64,000 nt of DNA from Candidatus Heimdallarchaeota archaeon (GTDB lineage Archaea > Asgardarchaeota > Heimdallarchaeia > Hodarchaeales > Hodarchaeaceae): the NCBI GenBank assembly GCA_019057635.1, contig DXJL01000156.1, positions 1-64,000 on the forward strand. The letters run 5' to 3'. A program made the position numbers and the translations under genes. Below, one piece after another: positions 1-56,391 of the stretch (within the stretch, counting starts at the first letter, position 1; each line of letters opens with the position of its first letter). The notes beneath the pieces were generated by a model. That model did no database searches and was not told the origin of the DNA. It worked only from the letters and a program-made list of their open reading frames with translations.

Positions 1-40
1 ATATGAAACACTTAATGGCTTTGATCCGAATAGATACATG

Positions 41-393
41 ATCTTTTTTGTCTTTTATGCCAATATTTCTCGTATTCGCTGACCGCTCTCTCTGACAATC
101 TCAAAAGTCCTCCCTCCCTTACTTCTTCAATCCCGAGGTGATGACAAAAAAATTTTTCTTAATTCTTAGGTCATATTTCCTTGTAACTACGTTAGACGAG
201 TTACCCGTCAAAGGCAAGAGAAGAATGGCCCAATCTGGTGGAAATTCATAAGTGTTTGGGAAATCGCAAGCAGATCTGATTCAAGTAGTCCCAATGGAAA
301 GCAAACATTCTCTTGTTGCTAACCTGCCAGATAGCGGTGTGTGACTCATCCTGTCCAGAACTATTTGCTAAATAGTTGTCTGACAAATATAGT
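41..393 (+). mobile_element. Non-autonomous, internally deleted (MITE-like) derivative of the TnpB element at 54330-55742
   Basis: Flanked by CATG at 37-40 and 394-397. 82-93 is an exact 12-mer match to revcomp 55650-55661. 183-215 matches revcomp 54946-54978 at 29/33. 282-397 closely matches revcomp 54326-54441. The segments are collinear. Confidence 0.85.
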
Positions 394-415
394 CATGAAG
401 ATTTTTCATAATCTT
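282..415 (+). ncRNA. Putative orphan omegaRNA (TnpB guide scaffold plus flanking guide)
   Basis: Homologous to the tnpB 3'-end/right-end region where omegaRNAs are encoded. The hairpin AACTATTT-GCT-AAATAGTT replaces AACTC-GTTTTCAA-GAGTT of the full element. Boundaries are approximate. Confidence 0.5.
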
Positions 416-728
416 ATGATACAATTAGGTGTAGAACCATATTCGGAAACTGATCTTTCTTCTGAGGATCCTTCAACCTATTGAAAAAACGATAGTCTTC
501 CTTTAGTGTAAATTAGGGCTAGTCTGCCATAAATTTCTTAGACTAAGTCTGAAATTTGAATAATTATTTATCGAAATAATCTCTTAATTATCTTACTTAC
601 AGAATATGTAGTAAATTACATTTATTAATGTCCATTAGAGAGAGAGGAATTGACGAATATCAGCTGTTAAGACGAGAAAAGCGTCAAAAATAGCTTTAGT
701 ATAAAACAAATCGTAGACGTGTATCACA

Positions 729-3173
729 ATGTCGAAAAGTAGAGAAGAAAAATCTATTCTGTGGTTTGATGAACTCAGAATAGAAGATGTGCCCTTAGTC
801 GGCGGAAAGAACGCATCACTGGGCGAAATGTATCATCATCTAACCAGTAAAGGAGTGAATATTCCTAATGGTTTTGCAATTACCGCAAGCGCTTACAGAC
901 ATCTCCTCCGAGATGCAGGGATCGAGGATGCGATCAAAGACGCTTTAGCTGGGTTGGACACTCATGATATCAGAAACCTCCAAAAAAGAGGAAGGAAAGT
1001 CCGTGAAATTATTCGTTATGCTAAATTACCCGCTGATCTCGAACAAGAAATCCGCAAAGCATATCAAGAATTATGTGAAAAATCAGGTCAGGAAAATGTG
1101 GATGTTGCAGTACGATCTAGTGCTACAGCTGAGGACCTTCCCGATGCTTCGTTCGCAGGTCAACAAGAAACTTATTTAAACGTCCGCGGTGAAGAATCTC
1201 TTTTAGATTCCTGTCGTTCATGTTTTGCAAGTTTATTTACTGATCGAGCAATCTCTTATCGTCAGGACAAAGGATTTGGTCATTTTGATGTTTACTTATC
1301 CATCGCCGTTCAGTTAATGATTCGCTCAGATTCGGCTTCTTCAGGAGTGATATTTTCCATCGATACCGAGTCAGGATTCGAACGAGCAGTCTTTATTACT
1401 GGAGCTTACGGACTTGGTGAAACTGTTGTCCAAGGTTCGGTGAATCCAGATGAATGGTATGTATTCAAACCAACATTGAAAGAAGGTAAGCGACCTATTG
1501 TTGGTAAACGATTGGGATCAAAGGAAATTATGATGGTTTACACCTCTGATAGCCGACGCCCAGTTAAAATAGTAGATACACCAGATTCAATGCGAAAAAC
1601 TTTCTGCGCATCGGATGACGAAGTTCTGAAGTTATCTGAATGGACTGTTATTATTGAAGAACACTACGGAAAAGCCATGGATATTGAATGGGCGAAAAAC
1701 GGTGATGGTGACTATGAGGGTGATGGTGAGCTTTATATTGTACAGGCACGACCTGAAACAGTTCACTCACAAAAGGCCACCAATGTCATAGAGACGTATG
1801 TACTGAAAGAAAGAAGCACAGAACTAGTACATGGTCAAGCGGTCGGCGCCAAGATAGGTCAAGGTGAAGTTAATGTCATTAAAACATCTGCTCGTATCCA
1901 TGAGTTCAAAAAAGGACAAGTTCTTGTTACGGATATGACAGACCCTGATTGGGAACCAATTATGAAGATTGCAGCAGCAATTATAACAAACCGCGGTGGA
2001 CGTACTTGTCACGCTGCTATTGTCTCACGTGAACTAGGTATTCCAGCAATTATTGGTACAGAAAACGCAACCAAAATTTTGAAAGATGGAATGAAAGTCA
2101 CAGCTTCCTGTGCAGAAGGACAAGATGGTATTGTTTTCGATGGGATTCTACCTTATGAAATCGATATCGTGGAACTTGATAATATTCCTGAAACACGTAC
2201 AAAAATCATGATGAACGTTGGTATCCCTGAAAAAGCCTTTGATCAAGCACAAATTCCAAATGACGGAGTAGGATTAGCCCGAGAAGAGTTTATCATCAAT
2301 TCATATATCGGTATTCATCCTCTTGCGTTAATTCACTACGAAGAACTCAAGGAAAAGGCTGAATCTGATCCTGAAATTCGCGAAATAATTACTAAAATTG
2401 ATGCAAAAACCAATGCCTATCCAGATAAAGAAGAATTCTTTATTGAGCAATTAGCAATGGGAATCGGCCGAATTGCAGCCGCATTCTATCCAAATGATGT
2501 CGTAGTCAGGATGTCGGACTTTAAAACAAACGAATACATCAATTTAATCGGTGGAATTTTGTATGAACCAACAGAATCGAATCCCATGATTGGATGGCGT
2601 GGTGCTTCACGTTATTATGATGAGACTTATGCACCAGCATATATCATGGAATGTAAAGCAATTAAACGAGTCCGTGATGATATGGGTTTGACGAACGTCA
2701 TAACAATGATTCCCTTCTGCCGTACCGTTGAAGAAGGAAAGAAAGTTATCGAAATAATGGCAAAAGCTGGATTGAAACAAGGTGAGAATGGACTAGAAGT
2801 CTATGTAATGGCTGAAGTTCCTTCAAACGTCATTCAAGCTGATGGTTTTGCTGAAGTTTTCGATGGATTTTCGATTGGAAGTAACGACTTGACACAATTA
2901 GCCCTTGGTCTTGATCGTGATTCTGAATTAGTTGCGCACATCTATGATGAACGAAATGAATCCGTAAAGAGATTAGTAAAATCGGTTATTGATGTTGCAA
3001 AAGCTCATAATCGGAAAATTGGTATTTGTGGACAAGCTCCTAGCGATTTTCCTGAATTTGCTACTTTCTTAGTCGAATGTGGAATTGACTCGATGAGTTT
3101 AAACCCTGATACAGTCGTTAAAACTAAACTCGATATTGCAAAAAAAGAGAAAGAATTAGGAATTCAACCATAA
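729..3173 (+). CDS. ppsA: Phosphoenolpyruvate synthase (pyruvate, water dikinase)
   Basis: VGGKNASLGEM, VAVRSSATAED, phospho-His motif GGRTCHAAIVSRELG, FSIGSNDLTQ, GICGQ; 814 aa. Confidence 0.97.
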   Translation: MSKSREEKSILWFDELRIEDVPLVGGKNASLGEMYHHLTSKGVNIPNGFAITASAYRHLLRDAGIEDAIKDALAGLDTHDIRNLQKRGRKVREIIRYAKLPADLEQEIRKAYQELCEKSGQENVDVAVRSSATAEDLPDASFAGQQETYLNVRGEESLLDSCRSCFASLFTDRAISYRQDKGFGHFDVYLSIAVQLMIRSDSASSGVIFSIDTESGFERAVFITGAYGLGETVVQGSVNPDEWYVFKPTLKEGKRPIVGKRLGSKEIMMVYTSDSRRPVKIVDTPDSMRKTFCASDDEVLKLSEWTVIIEEHYGKAMDIEWAKNGDGDYEGDGELYIVQARPETVHSQKATNVIETYVLKERSTELVHGQAVGAKIGQGEVNVIKTSARIHEFKKGQVLVTDMTDPDWEPIMKIAAAIITNRGGRTCHAAIVSRELGIPAIIGTENATKILKDGMKVTASCAEGQDGIVFDGILPYEIDIVELDNIPETRTKIMMNVGIPEKAFDQAQIPNDGVGLAREEFIINSYIGIHPLALIHYEELKEKAESDPEIREIITKIDAKTNAYPDKEEFFIEQLAMGIGRIAAAFYPNDVVVRMSDFKTNEYINLIGGILYEPTESNPMIGWRGASRYYDETYAPAYIMECKAIKRVRDDMGLTNVITMIPFCRTVEEGKKVIEIMAKAGLKQGENGLEVYVMAEVPSNVIQADGFAEVFDGFSIGSNDLTQLALGLDRDSELVAHIYDERNESVKRLVKSVIDVAKAHNRKIGICGQAPSDFPEFATFLVECGIDSMSLNPDTVVKTKLDIAKKEKELGIQP

Positions 3174-22986: not shown

Positions 22987-23403
22987 GTGAAAATGGTAAC
23001 ACCTTCAGGCTTAACATTAAAATTTGTCCTTCAAGGCTGGGCTGCTAATAATTCTCGTCGATCAGAGGGCATAGCATTTCTAGCTCAAGATCCAGCTACA
23101 GCTCGAGCGAGAATTGAGGCATTCAAAGATAAAACTCATCGGATTTTGATTTGTCCTTTATTAGATTGGTCGTGGTCAGATATCGCTAATGAAGTTGCAG
23201 GAGTTGTTACAGATCATGGAACAAGAGTTTCCAGAGGATCAGAAGTTTCTGGAATTGTTCAGGTCGCTGCTGTATTAGGTACTAGAGAAGCTACTGCCAA
23301 AATTAAAGATGGAGATTATGTACAGATAATTTGTGAAGGAAATGAGGCACTAGCGAAAATTTTTGAACCAATAAAAAATGTTTCTGGTATTAAAGAAACC
23401 TAA
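22987..23403 (+). CDS. Stand-alone PEP-utilising mobile (swivel) domain protein with the catalytic His absent
   Basis: AGVVTDHGTRVSRGSEVS...AVLGTREATAKIKDGD aligns with the PpsA segment AAIITNRGGRTCHAAIVS...AIIGTENATKILKDGM in this window. Confidence 0.75.
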   Translation: MKMVTPSGLTLKFVLQGWAANNSRRSEGIAFLAQDPATARARIEAFKDKTHRILICPLLDWSWSDIANEVAGVVTDHGTRVSRGSEVSGIVQVAAVLGTREATAKIKDGDYVQIICEGNEALAKIFEPIKNVSGIKET

Positions 23404-54309: not shown

Positions 54310-54445
54310 AGGTACGGTGAGGAATCATGACTAAAATTGTCAGACAACTCTTGAAAACGAGTTCTGGACAGGATGAGTCACACATCCGCTATCCGGCAGG
54401 TTAGTAACACTAGAATGGATACTATCCGTTGGGACTACTTGGGAG
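54310..54445 (-). ncRNA. Putative omegaRNA overlapping the tnpB 3' end
   Basis: Canonical position for an omegaRNA. The sequence is conserved in the copy at 282-397 up to CATG and diverges immediately after, at the predicted scaffold/guide boundary. Boundaries are approximate. Confidence 0.65.
54330..54349. repeat. Right-end terminal inverted repeat
   Basis: ACTAAAATTGTCAGACAACT versus revcomp of 55723-55742, ATCAAATTTGTCAGAACACT. Confidence 0.7.
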
Positions 54446-55611
54446 TCTGTAGGATAACGTTGAAGAATATTCCGAGCCGCGTTATAATCGGCATTCAGAT
54501 GAACCCCGCACCTCTGACAACAAAAGGAACCTCGCGATGTTCGATTCCGCTTATCTACATGGCCACACTTACTACATTGTTGGGAGGTATACGCTTCGTC
54601 TACCCGTACTACGGTCATTCCAACAAGTTTAGCCTTGTATTCAAGCATTTGAACCAATTGGGAGAAGGGAAGTTGAATAAACGACTGATTTATCCGTTTT
54701 CCTAAGTTGCAGTGCTGTTTCCATCCCGCATTATAACCAATGACTAAGGTCTTTATCTTCTGCTCTAAACAGTAGTTGATTATTCGACGGGAGATTTGAT
54801 GGAAGATATCGTGGAGCTTATTAATCCGTCTACGATGTAGGCGTTGTATACGACGAGTAGTATACTGATGATTACAGATGGTGGCTAAGGATCGATAATG
54901 CGCAAGTTGCTTGTTATACCACTGATTAATGGTCTTAACTACCCCGCCTTTGACGAGTAAGCCGTCTGACGTAGTTACGAGATTGGTAAGACCGAGATCT
55001 ATTCCCATAGTTCGGGATGGAAAATCAGAGGAAGGAAATGGTTGCGCTTGTACTTCATAGAGTAATTCTACCACAAAGCGATCATAAAATGGCACTAACC
55101 GCGCCCCAACACATGCTTCCGCTGTCAATGGAAGAGAATCCAGGGGAAAGGTCGGAAACCCTCGTGCCATGAGATTTCGAGTAAATAGAATTTGGCTATT
55201 ACGGATTCGAACTCTGCGCCGGGGAAAGCTCAGCATATACATTCCGTTCTTGGGTTTATATCTAGGGGTTCGGGGGCGGGTTCGAAACCGGCCAGGATCC
55301 TTTTTCCAAACTTTCAGCGCGTTAAAAAAGCTGCGCCAAGTTTGTTCTACCTGTCGTAGGACCTGTTGGGGTAAATAGCTATCAGACATGTCTTTTAATG
55401 CTAGATACACTGGTTCGTGCTTGAGGCGATGATATAGGTTGGTATATTGGATCCATTTCCCTGTACTGAAAAATTCTTGTCGTACCTCATATGTCGCTCG
55501 ATTATAGAGATTTTTGGCACAGGTGCACAAATCGGTGAAAATTGGCCTAGGTTTCATTTGCATTCGGATAGCTAATTGGGGTTGAGGGTTTTTCTTGATA
55601 CGCATTCCCAT
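54340..55611 (-). CDS. tnpB: RNA-guided endonuclease TnpB with rearranged RuvC-II
   Basis: AKNLYN, QQVLR, RuvC-I GIDLG, LVIGYN, VDEAYTS, CSKCG..CQRCG, RuvC-III NADYNAARNI. Confidence 0.95.
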   Translation of the reverse strand: MGMRIKKNPQPQLAIRMQMKPRPIFTDLCTCAKNLYNRATYEVRQEFFSTGKWIQYTNLYHRLKHEPVYLALKDMSDSYLPQQVLRQVEQTWRSFFNALKVWKKDPGRFRTRPRTPRYKPKNGMYMLSFPRRRVRIRNSQILFTRNLMARGFPTFPLDSLPLTAEACVGARLVPFYDRFVVELLYEVQAQPFPSSDFPSRTMGIDLGLTNLVTTSDGLLVKGGVVKTINQWYNKQLAHYRSLATICNHQYTTRRIQRLHRRRINKLHDIFHQISRRIINYCLEQKIKTLVIGYNAGWKQHCNLGKRINQSFIQLPFSQLVQMLEYKAKLVGMTVVRVDEAYTSQQCSKCGHVDKRNRTSRGSFCCQRCGVHLNADYNAARNILQRYPTDSQVVPTDSIHSSVTNLPDSGCVTHPVQNSFSRVV

Positions 55612-55722
55612 TCCTTTTTGGAATTTTCACTCTTATAAACTTGAGACAAAGAGAGAGCGGTGAAATTGATGAATGTGATGAAATTGAACCCTTTTTCTTC
55701 CCGACCAGTACTGATAAAAACT

Positions 55723-55742
55723 AGTGTTCTGACAAATTTGAT
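55723..55742. repeat. Left-end terminal inverted repeat
   Basis: AGTGTTCTGACAAATTTGAT, immediately followed by CATG. Confidence 0.7.
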
Positions 55743-55743
55743 C

Positions 55744-56391
55744 ATGCCTAAGATTCAGTGTATCATATTCGATGTGGATGGGACATTACTTGACAATACA
55801 AATTTTATAGTATCCCTATTTCAGGATACTGTAATAAAATATCTTGGACCAGCAAAAAGTATGTCTAGGAATGAAGTTTTGTCATTATGGGGTCCACCTG
55901 GAGATGAAATCTTTAGAAAAGTATTTCCACCCGAGGTAGTTGACGAAGCTTGGTCAGAATTTCTCATTAAGTATCGTAACACTCATACAAAAACGGGTTT
56001 TTTTTCTCGTGTGGAATTGAATGACTTTCGGAAATATGTTCAATATCTAGTAATTTTTACTGGTAAATCGCGTTATACTAATACCATCTCTTTGGAAGAA
56101 TTGGATATTACTGATTGTTTCGACCTTATCTATACTGGAAGTGATGTGGAAAATTCAAAACCCCATCCTGATGCACTGTTCCTTATATTAGAAGATTTAG
56201 ATCTGAATCCGGATAAAGTAATCTTTATTGGGGATAGCCATCTTGATATCATTGCAGGAAAGGCTGCAGGTATTCCAACCGCTGGGGCCGAATGGGGAGC
56301 AGTTGAGTTGGAAAAGCTCCTCCAAAGCAAGCCTGATCATGTTTTTAAGACCCCAAATGACTTTATCAAGTTCATAGAAAGCGCTTCATGA
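55744..56391 (+). CDS. HAD-superfamily phosphatase (PpaX/Gph-like)
   Basis: FDVDGTL, TGK, KPHPD, IGDSHLD. The true start is ATG 55744, inside the CATG repeat. Confidence 0.9.
   Translation: MPKIQCIIFDVDGTLLDNTNFIVSLFQDTVIKYLGPAKSMSRNEVLSLWGPPGDEIFRKVFPPEVVDEAWSEFLIKYRNTHTKTGFFSRVELNDFRKYVQYLVIFTGKSRYTNTISLEELDITDCFDLIYTGSDVENSKPHPDALFLILEDLDLNPDKVIFIGDSHLDIIAGKAAGIPTAGAEWGAVELEKLLQSKPDHVFKTPNDFIKFIESAS

Follow-up and report, generated by a model that had tools for sequence, protein, structure and literature searches.

A probable miniature derivative of TnpB-only insertion sequences with a covarying omegaRNA-type scaffold in a Candidatus Heimdallarchaeota genome

The DNA described here, referred to as the window, is a stretch of 64,000 nucleotides, the first 64 kb of contig C133 from a Candidatus Heimdallarchaeota archaeon (assembly of 3.19 Mb in 214 contigs, 36% G+C, 91.6% complete). 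At 37–397 on the forward strand it contains a short element that carries no nuclease gene and ends in a sequence homologous to the 3′ end of tnpB and the adjoining right end. With slightly better than even confidence we read this element as a transposed, non-coding miniature derived from a TnpB-only insertion sequence, for which transcription, loading of the RNA in trans, and homing are proposed.

Homology to tnpB and the family of short elements

When window 201–520 was compared with the whole window by BLAST, 282–398 matched 54441–54325 on the reverse strand (84.7% identity over 118 columns, E = 2.8e-31). The partner of the orphan scaffold in this match consists of the last ~100 nt of a 423-aa open reading frame (ORF) at 54340–55611 (−) and of ~15 nt past its stop codon. 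This ORF matches the Pfam families OrfB_IS605 (6.6e-21) and Cas12f1-like_TNB (4.1e-25), and its matches in PDB are Cas12f and TnpB chains. An earlier reading of the letters alone (the sequence-only reading) had proposed that an RNA-encoding end lies here without its tnpB, and the identity as an omegaRNA scaffold is borne out by the homology. Other genomic copies matching at least 110 nt of the orphan scaffold by BLAST are 77–94% identical to it. The parts of the short element and of the full-length element in the window are as follows.

37..397, +: short non-autonomous element as a whole; 361 bp counting the CATG at each end; end-to-end homology with 17 other short loci
37..58, +: left end with the left inverted repeat; consensus CATGATCAWWTTTGTCYGACAA, of which the window version (CATGATCTTTTTTGTCttttat) is a degenerate form
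99..107, +: possible archaeal TATA-like box CTCAAAAGT; aligns with CTTAAAAGG of the short and CTTATAAGAG of the full-length copies
183..214, +: internal conserved block GTAACTACGTTAGACGAGTTACCCGTCAAAGG, a RuvC-I coding remnant; 6-bp hairpin GTAACT/AGTTAC; covarying outer stem at ~176–222
223..281, +: decayed stretch, probably the ancestral RuvC-III region of tnpB to judge from a weak alignment
282..397, +: omegaRNA scaffold; homology to the tnpB 3′ end and the right end
296..324, +: long 5′ hairpin H1; an A.G mismatch in the window copy
336..351, +: GG(A)TG/CATCC hairpin whose loop contains GTGACT (341–346); the A is absent in the window version
352..385, +: stem TGTC-C-AGA/TCT-GACA around the variable hairpin AACTATTT/AAATAGTT (359–377)
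391..396, +: AGTCAT, 3′ strand of a long-range or pseudoknot pairing with 341–346; within the right inverted repeat (376–397)
398..413, +: presumed guide AAGATTTTTCATAATC, coding sequence of the interrupted host gene
398..484, +: final 28 codons and stop codon of the small host gene cut by the element
54326..55746, −: full-length TnpB-only element of ~1420 bp with the same ends; site empty in the related genomes G002, G020, G004, and G018
54340..55611, −: intact tnpB, 423 aa; RuvC-I GIDLG; RuvC-II with Gly in place of the Glu (LVIGYN), VDEAYTSQQC containing an alternative Glu; RuvC-III NADYNAA
54310..54441, −: omegaRNA scaffold of the full-length element (54326–54441) and its guide (54310–54325, ATTCCTCACCGTACCT)

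The similarity between the two copies stops after ...AGTCATG, which is followed by AAGATTTTTCATAATC in the orphan and by ATTCCTCACCGTACC in the full copy. That the downstream sequences differ, as had been noted, is due to the fact that the flank is the DNA beside the insertion.

The right end of the family was matched by BLAST at 43 places in the whole assembly, of which two pairs are probably one locus each on overlapping contigs (C182 and the start of the window; C118 and C35). A pattern search for both ends found 23 copies, 6 of them full-length (1335–1423 bp) and 17 short (354–364 bp); the other right ends, not caught with both ends by the pattern, are at contig edges or partial. Together with the window copy and a copy on C22, the left ends of which are both degenerate, the 17 pattern copies make up a short set of 19 rows representing 18 loci. 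The short elements form two subfamilies, and since these can be aligned over their full length, the short elements descend from one short ancestor. Four parts are kept in each of them: the left end, the TATA-like CTTAAAAGG (CTTATAAGAG in full copies), the 32-nt RuvC-I block, and the last ~120 nt. They are non-coding, the ORF from the conserved ATG being at most 14 aa long in 15 of the 19 rows, and the overall divergence between copies is 12–32%. The same family is abundant in related genomes; for example, G002 gives 46 matches.

It had been assumed that almost all of tnpB was deleted at this place, with the RNA-encoding end kept. In this form the deletion is not supported, and more than that end is present. 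The window element arrived already short, as one of the 18 loci of 354–364 bp with empty orthologous sites, and in addition to the scaffold it retains a left end (37 to ~135), the 32-nt RuvC-I remnant (183–214), and the decayed stretch (223–281). In G002, G018, and G004, which belong to the same genus, the orthologous site is without the element, with the gap exactly at the element ends; the flanks of the orphan are 6 nt apart in G002 and show element-free spacing in G018 and G004. Removal of the window element together with one CATG restores the host frame ..AGA TAC ATG AAG ATT.., and orthologues of the host gene are intact in the same three genomes. The interrupted small ORF, which is co-oriented with the element and situated between the genes for enolase and phosphoenolpyruvate synthase, belongs to no Pfam family. 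The element entered this small gene after the split from the three related genomes, 28 codons before the stop codon. Window 1–1500 was compared with sequencing runs in the form of assembled contigs, three of the runs being from DNA and one from RNA; a contig of DNA run X2, which is from another sample, covers 359–614, and the insertion is therefore not private to one data set.

The same locus is found a second time in the assembly: contig C182 (locus L035, 3.3 kb; positions 438–1) overlaps window 1–437 with 96.6% identity, 15 differences, and identical flanks. Three of the differences, at 305, at 329, and after 337, where a base is absent, fall in the scaffold, and at these it is the window version that is off the family consensus. 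The cause is either a second strain or a mixing of repeat copies during assembly. Since C182 and the window differ at the same locus, the exact sequence of the window copy is uncertain.

Word depth in the metagenome contigs of the DNA runs X1 and X2 is 8–40 times higher at 151–250 and 301–400 than in the unique flank (~380 versus 9 in X1) and is raised in X3 too, which agrees with many copies sharing exact words of the block and the scaffold. Two other products of the region were considered and dropped, namely a small protein from a 37-aa ORF at 138–251, which is not conserved, and a box C/D RNA, for which there was a SNORD44 match at 133–193 (E up to 1, 17.8 bits against a cut-off of 40) and a GUGAUGA, with no CUGA in range. 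At the gathering score Rfam gave no match in the window, and the 26-nt scaffold core had no exact match in viral contigs.

The sequence-only reading also had a distant TnpB that could load the orphan RNA, and intact genes of the same family do exist. The tnpB gene is open in four of the seven copies examined (C133, 423 aa; C152, 423 aa; C72, 424 aa; C35, 420 aa) and broken in three (C69, C179, C67). GIDLG is present in all seven, and every copy that reaches the position of the RuvC-II Glu of the Cas12f chain has a Gly there. The four intact proteins have a Glu in V(D/N/S)EAYTSQxC, with six residues between the Glu of VDEAYTSQQC and the first Cys, and they keep the RuvC-III Asp (NADYNAA; HTDYNAA in C152; NADHNAA in C35). 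With the catalytic Asp, the alternative Glu, and the Asp of RuvC-III kept, the four are apparently active, as far as can be judged from their sequences. The full-length copies, of which there are several per genome, have diverged to 71–81% amino-acid identity. The closest public TnpB loci (67–82% identity) are from Candidatus Heimdallarchaeota B3_Heim and Candidatus Hodarchaeota metagenome-assembled genomes (MAGs); the next ones, at 30–35%, are bacterial. Outside the family, the nearest TnpBs are linked to IS607: that on the genome's own contig C54 (38%) and that of locus L069 (35%, with a Resolvase gene just upstream).

The full-length element in the window sits on the start codon of a HAD-hydrolase gene (55660–56391, +), with junctions at 55743–55746 and 54326–54329. 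The CATG of its left junction provides the ATG of this gene (ATG CCT AAG ATT..), the native ribosome-binding stretch of which (GGTGAGG) is now 1.42 kb off, past the right end and inside the presumed guide of the element.

Structure of the scaffold and of the internal block

A hand-drawn structure of the scaffold was scored on a MAFFT alignment of 32 genomic copies. Of the 1170 cells 88.6% are paired. Shuffling gives 78.5%, with 0 of 500 shuffles coming up to the real alignment, and sliding the partners gives 36–45%, or 33–48% when a further scoring is counted in. Because the copies are related, shuffling overstates the effect, and sliding is the more trustworthy control. For covariation the score is 0.272 versus 0.122, and double-sided changes are found at 17 of 37 pairs. 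In the 20 short copies alone 90.5% of the cells are paired and 14 of the 37 pairs have changed on both sides. The claim that compensatory change keeps the scaffold structure is thus supported by covariation over all 32 copies and also over those without a nuclease gene. Since the short copies covary by themselves and a stem of subfamily B, AATTCA/TGAATT, is missing from the full-length copies (0 of 6 aligned), the structure has been kept up since the nuclease gene was lost.

The helices contribute differently to this result. In H1 all 12 pairs show double-sided change (e.g., GCAAC/GUUGC, AAUUCA/UGAAUU, and UCACC/GGUGA); that this hairpin is only 72% paired is explained by the MAFFT register being off by one in three full-length-type copies. 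In the variable hairpin 5 pairs have changed on both sides. The orphan hairpin AACTATTT(gct)AAATAGTT (359–377) corresponds to AACTCGTT(ttc)AAGAGTT in the full copy; between the two, one pair has been switched on both sides from C-G to A-U, and a G.A mismatch has become U-A, so that the hairpin is indeed, as had been seen, altered in sequence and still paired. The surrounding stem UGUC-AGA/UCU-GACA has G.U-type single changes only. The same is true of the GG(A)TG/CATCC hairpin (96.2% of cells paired), and a CCG/CGG helix, mutually exclusive with GGAUG/CAUCC, fits about equally. The complementarity of TGACT (342–346) with AGTCA (391–395) is found in both copies, as stated before, and as the putative pseudoknot GTGACT/AGTCAT it is paired in 98.4% of the cells. 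It seems to be kept; a double-sided change never occurs in it, and the departures among the 192 cells are G.U-type single changes in 3 and loss of pairing in 3. The unpaired stretches CAAGTAGTCCC and GATAGCGG of the scaffold are at least 90% conserved.

At each of 11 loci from other Asgard MAGs the 32-nt block shows 0–2 mismatches, and a fixed variant of it is present in every short element (window 183–214). Its outer stem covaries (CCUCG/CGGGG, CCCUCG/CGAGGG, CCCUUG/CAAGAG). By these patterns of conservation the block is a nucleic-acid-level element. Pairing of it with the scaffold was not above that of shuffles. Third-codon-position identity among the six full-length copies is 0.97 at tnpB codons 211–222 (LVTTSDGLLVKG; window 54946–54985, −) as compared with ~0.5 elsewhere; it is 0.85–0.87 where tnpB overlaps the scaffold.

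Ends, presumed guides, and proposed homing in trans

Left ends of the family start with CATGATCAWWTTTGTCYGACAA and right ends close with TTGTCTGACAAATTTAGTCATG, with CATG at both ends. A 21-nt end pattern allowing up to 4 mismatches gave 76 matches, nearly all of which are left ends in forward or right ends in reverse orientation. The inverted repeats are imperfect (~16–17 of 22 positions agree in the two copies of the window locus, by hand count), and the left end has no strong conserved hairpin. The site of the full copy reads ..CTTAGG CATG ATTCCCCACCG.. when empty, with one CATG, as in G002, and ..CTTAGG CATG ATCAAA...TTTAGT CATG ATTCCTCACCG.. when occupied, as in the window; in the four genomes in which it is empty it has CATG in G002, G020, and G018 and CATA in G004. 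The sites compared have one CATG-like tetranucleotide when empty and CATG at both junctions when occupied, a pattern that fits either a 2–4 bp duplication or conservative recombination within CATG. Two end positions vary. The left CATG has a T as its first base in three short copies and C152, and the right CAT is followed by G in 37 of 43 right-end rows and by another base in 6. These would be the two host-derived positions if AT were duplicated (2 bp).

The base before the left CATG is A in 12, G in 7, C in 4, and T in none of 23 junctions of the host genome, and A in 6, C in 9, G in 4, and T in none of 19 junctions of G002 and G020. T is thus missing at 42 junctions, or at 41 independent ones if an orthologue of a counted site is left out, and the right end of the element itself is T-CATG. 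By our own arithmetic the chance of 0 in 41 is ~1e-7 when T makes up ~0.32 of the bases (36% G+C).

At C84:~3070–3105 and C104:~23050–23085 there are palindrome-like remnants of ~33 bp in which the left end runs straight into the right end (CATGATCA..TTGTC.G.CAAAT..AGTCAT). They may be deletions between the 11-nt TTGTCTGACAA common to both ends, or minimal elements.

The sequence after AGTCAT(G) is different at every locus, the two rows of the window locus being alike. All 43 flanks were searched for in the genome, and each zero-mismatch match was that of the flank's own locus. Because there are no second exact matches, the "several guides" for one nuclease would mean that each insertion site has its own guide, as happens in homing, rather than extra genomic targets. 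Near matches with 1–2 mismatches are mostly without an upstream CATG among the matches listed. One flank, that of the short element on C194, has a 1-mismatch match after TACATG at C199:~6727; it might mark a second target, or the contig might be a duplicate or allelic one.

The mechanism that we propose is as follows. Transcription of the element would come from the TATA-like box that it retains or would run in from the co-oriented host gene. As a general source of transcription, such read-through was rejected, the nearest upstream ORF being co-oriented at 5 and divergent at 12 of the 23 loci listed; the window locus, for which that list has no ORF, is a co-oriented one. One of the four intact genes would provide the TnpB that binds the scaffold in trans, and it is the presence of these genes that makes trans-loading plausible. 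After excision the window allele would read ..GATACATG joined directly to AAGATT.., and the 3′ flank (AAGAUUUUUCAUAAUC...) would guide cutting of the vacated site (..ACATG + AAGATTTTTCATAATC). Repair off the sister chromosome would then reinstate the element, which would amount to restorative homing in trans. TnpB might tell an empty from an occupied site by the base before CATG, a V-CATG motif sparing the T-CATG of the right junction.

We also put forward, with much less confidence, a wider reading, namely that Asgard archaea of the Heimdall/Hodarchaeota type have a distinct type of TnpB transposon, bounded by inverted repeats and inserting at CATG, the miniatures of which would depend on TnpB in trans, with V-CATG/T-CATG discrimination and with the structured RuvC-I block as a required cis part. 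The last point is suggested by the fact that the synonymous sites of the block are frozen across genomes and that the block is kept in every miniature.

There are several points that weigh against homing of a miniature in trans. In addition to the overstating shuffle control, the pairings GGATG/CATCC and TGACT/AGTCA are without double-sided change. The window copy departs from columns conserved in at least 90% of the copies (an A at 329, no A after 337 in the GGATG stem, A.G in H1), and its left repeat is degenerate; C182 agrees with the consensus at all of these. If the departures of the window version are real, the window copy may neither move nor load well. A repeat search (seed 8, minimum 14) listed no terminal repeats in the two copies tried. 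Contigs of the RNA run X18 lie only on parts of 851–1500 and none on 1–850, which is no evidence either way. There is a T5 run at 148–152, and T6–7 runs occur within the scaffold of subfamily B; such runs could stop archaeal transcription. The depletion of T before CATG could equally reflect target choice by a recombinase.

An enzyme able to excise the element was not found among the Y1, serine, tyrosine, DDE, and Cas1 candidates looked for, and this too counts against the proposal. The genome, as assembled to 91.6% completeness, contains no Y1 TnpA (PF01797). It has two IS607-type elements in which a serine TnpA adjoins TnpB (C54:5735–~7700 and C56:27300–29330); their TnpA was rejected as the mover, the ends being unlike those of the CATG/inverted-repeat family. 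One tyrosine recombinase is present in the genome, on C157. DDE_3 was not found in the genome, and DDE_Tnp_1, which has three matches there, one of them adjoining the C22 short copy, was rejected since none is tied to these ends. A Cas1-like N-terminal fragment was likewise put aside; it lies at a contig end, is below the cut-off, and has no adjacent repeat. Solo left ends carry no transposase. The neighbours of the closest 9 Asgard TnpB loci are host genes, and the 65 neighbour ORFs of 39 TnpB loci include one Resolvase and two Y1 genes, none of which adjoins the Asgard loci. Metagenome relatives are on short contigs; in the one examined (L146) the upstream ORF is on the opposite strand.

Some of these points would be expected if the element were an inert relic, the ends of which are recognised by a recombinase, with the scaffold as a passenger that is conserved through recent copying rather than through use of the guide. 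The three scaffold departures and the degenerate left end of the window copy are in favour of this view, as are the missing X18 contigs on 1–850 and the many truncated right-end fragments, both ends having been found by pattern in only 23 of 43 cases. Recent copying does not account well, however, for copies that differ by 12–32% and of which the short ones are nevertheless 90.5% paired, with 14 of 37 pairs changed on both sides. Moreover, the covarying hairpins are 20–100 nt inside the end, beyond the inverted repeat of ~22 nt, and the unpaired CAAGTAGTCCC and GATAGCGG are conserved in at least 90% of the copies. We consider the relic a real but clearly less probable explanation. Even less weight is given to the view that the hairpins are structures of single-stranded DNA at the right end for a mobilising enzyme of the IS200/IS605 kind and not RNA: subterminal hairpins of IS200/IS605 elements are transposase sites, as described in a section of PMC13565253, and covariation tolerating G.T cannot separate DNA from RNA of the same strand, but the genome is without a Y1 transposase, the ends are inverted repeats with no matching strong hairpin on the left, and the conserved structure of ~120 nt has the length of an omegaRNA scaffold. 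This makes the DNA reading rather unlikely. Finally, TnpB could use the RNA for something other than homing, e.g., for repression or for cleavage of other genomic or foreign targets, and there are relatives of TnpB that have been recruited as RNA-guided regulators (PMC10705468). We think this highly improbable, considering that the TnpB copies keep the catalytic Asp, the alternative Glu, and the Asp, that 0 of 43 flanks have a second exact genomic match, and that the near matches listed mostly lack an upstream CATG, with one exception.

Comparison with known TnpB systems

The idea that omegaRNAs are used in trans is already in print. Standalone omegaRNAs have been shown to work in trans (PMC10691335, in the part dealing with these RNAs), and palindrome-associated transposable elements (PATEs) often encode omegaRNAs on which a nuclease has to act in trans (bioRxiv 10.1101/2023.03.14.532601, in part). 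The PATEs of Haloquadratum are described, in a portion of PMC3119063, as derived by internal deletion from IS605-type elements. The window element is in this respect an ordinary member of a described class. What is new here is the inverted-repeat/CATG architecture together with a tnpB block with frozen synonymous sites, and it is from these two and from the host lineage that the interest mainly comes.

With standalone omegaRNAs, one RNA-guided nuclease has many separately encoded guides; there is no simpler natural case of this, and it is a step toward a CRISPR-like organisation. The present family provides a clean comparative set: a single genome has 18 short loci and 6 full-length ones, relatives have more, and the empty sites are dated by species comparison; compensatory change within nuclease-less copies adds to its value. 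The nuclease belongs to those with a rearranged active site, a kind for which a link to eukaryotic Fanzors has been drawn; the host is apparently from the archaeal group closest to eukaryotes. If true, the CATG motif, the single-base distinction of self and non-self, and the internal block would bring to TnpB biology a target motif and a cis element that are both new.

On the protein side, the window TnpB resembles TnpBs with a rearranged RuvC-II, having LVIGYN where the Cas12f chain has ..qmEDL.. and an alternative Glu near the zinc finger (excerpts of PMC10711439), and it matches the Glu-to-Gly group in the text portions of PMC10691335. The likeness is one of motif description, and unlike Fanzors, which have D-P-G in RuvC-I, the window TnpB has D-L-G. 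A tie of the family to DDE-linked or Asgard Cas1-linked TnpB groups was looked for and not found, and in the passages of PMC10691335 on Asgard TnpBs (aCas1-linked groups) the window family does not appear. According to section 9 of PMC10691335 there are DDE-linked TnpB branches in elements with symmetrical ends, and an Asgard Cas1-linked group exists. The window family shares the symmetrical ends with the DDE-linked TnpBs; unlike these, it has no DDE transposase linked to it.

The elements themselves combine properties of several types. Like the IS1341-type (TnpB-only) members of IS200/IS605, the full-length copies encode TnpB alone and occur as several diverged copies. IS200/IS605 elements, however, have no inverted repeats and a target motif at the left end only (as given in part of PMC13565253), whereas the window family has CATG at both junctions and ends that are inverted repeats. 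With IS607 the family has in common that its nearest outside TnpBs are IS607-linked and that both junctions share a short sequence with the empty site, as would be in keeping with conservative recombination; IS607 elements, on the other hand, are without inverted repeats and have mostly GG ends (PMC13565253, PMC6188088), and by CATG and inverted repeats the window family stands outside them. Small, uniform, multicopy, non-coding (18 loci of 354–364 bp, no conserved ORF), and bounded by terminal inverted repeats, the short elements are like miniature inverted-repeat transposable elements. Like Fanzor1 RNAs, as far as these are described in PMC10711439, the scaffold includes the right inverted repeat and the junction tetranucleotide just before the presumed guide; unlike in Fanzor1, the pseudoknot-like pairing seems to be retained.

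Much is shared with standalone omegaRNAs and PATEs, which are also mobilised without an effector or a transposase of their own, keep the scaffold, have TnpB elsewhere, and take the guide from the flank past the right end. PATEs are, however, defined by the lack of inverted terminal repeats (in the passage of PMC3119063 concerned), and the window family has imperfect ones of ~22 nt together with CATG at both ends. Neither the absence of inverted repeats nor hairpins at both ends nor a Y1 TnpA, by which PATEs and other IS200/IS605 derivatives are recognised, is found in the window family; its genome is without a Y1 transposase, and the family keeps a second conserved block from inside tnpB.

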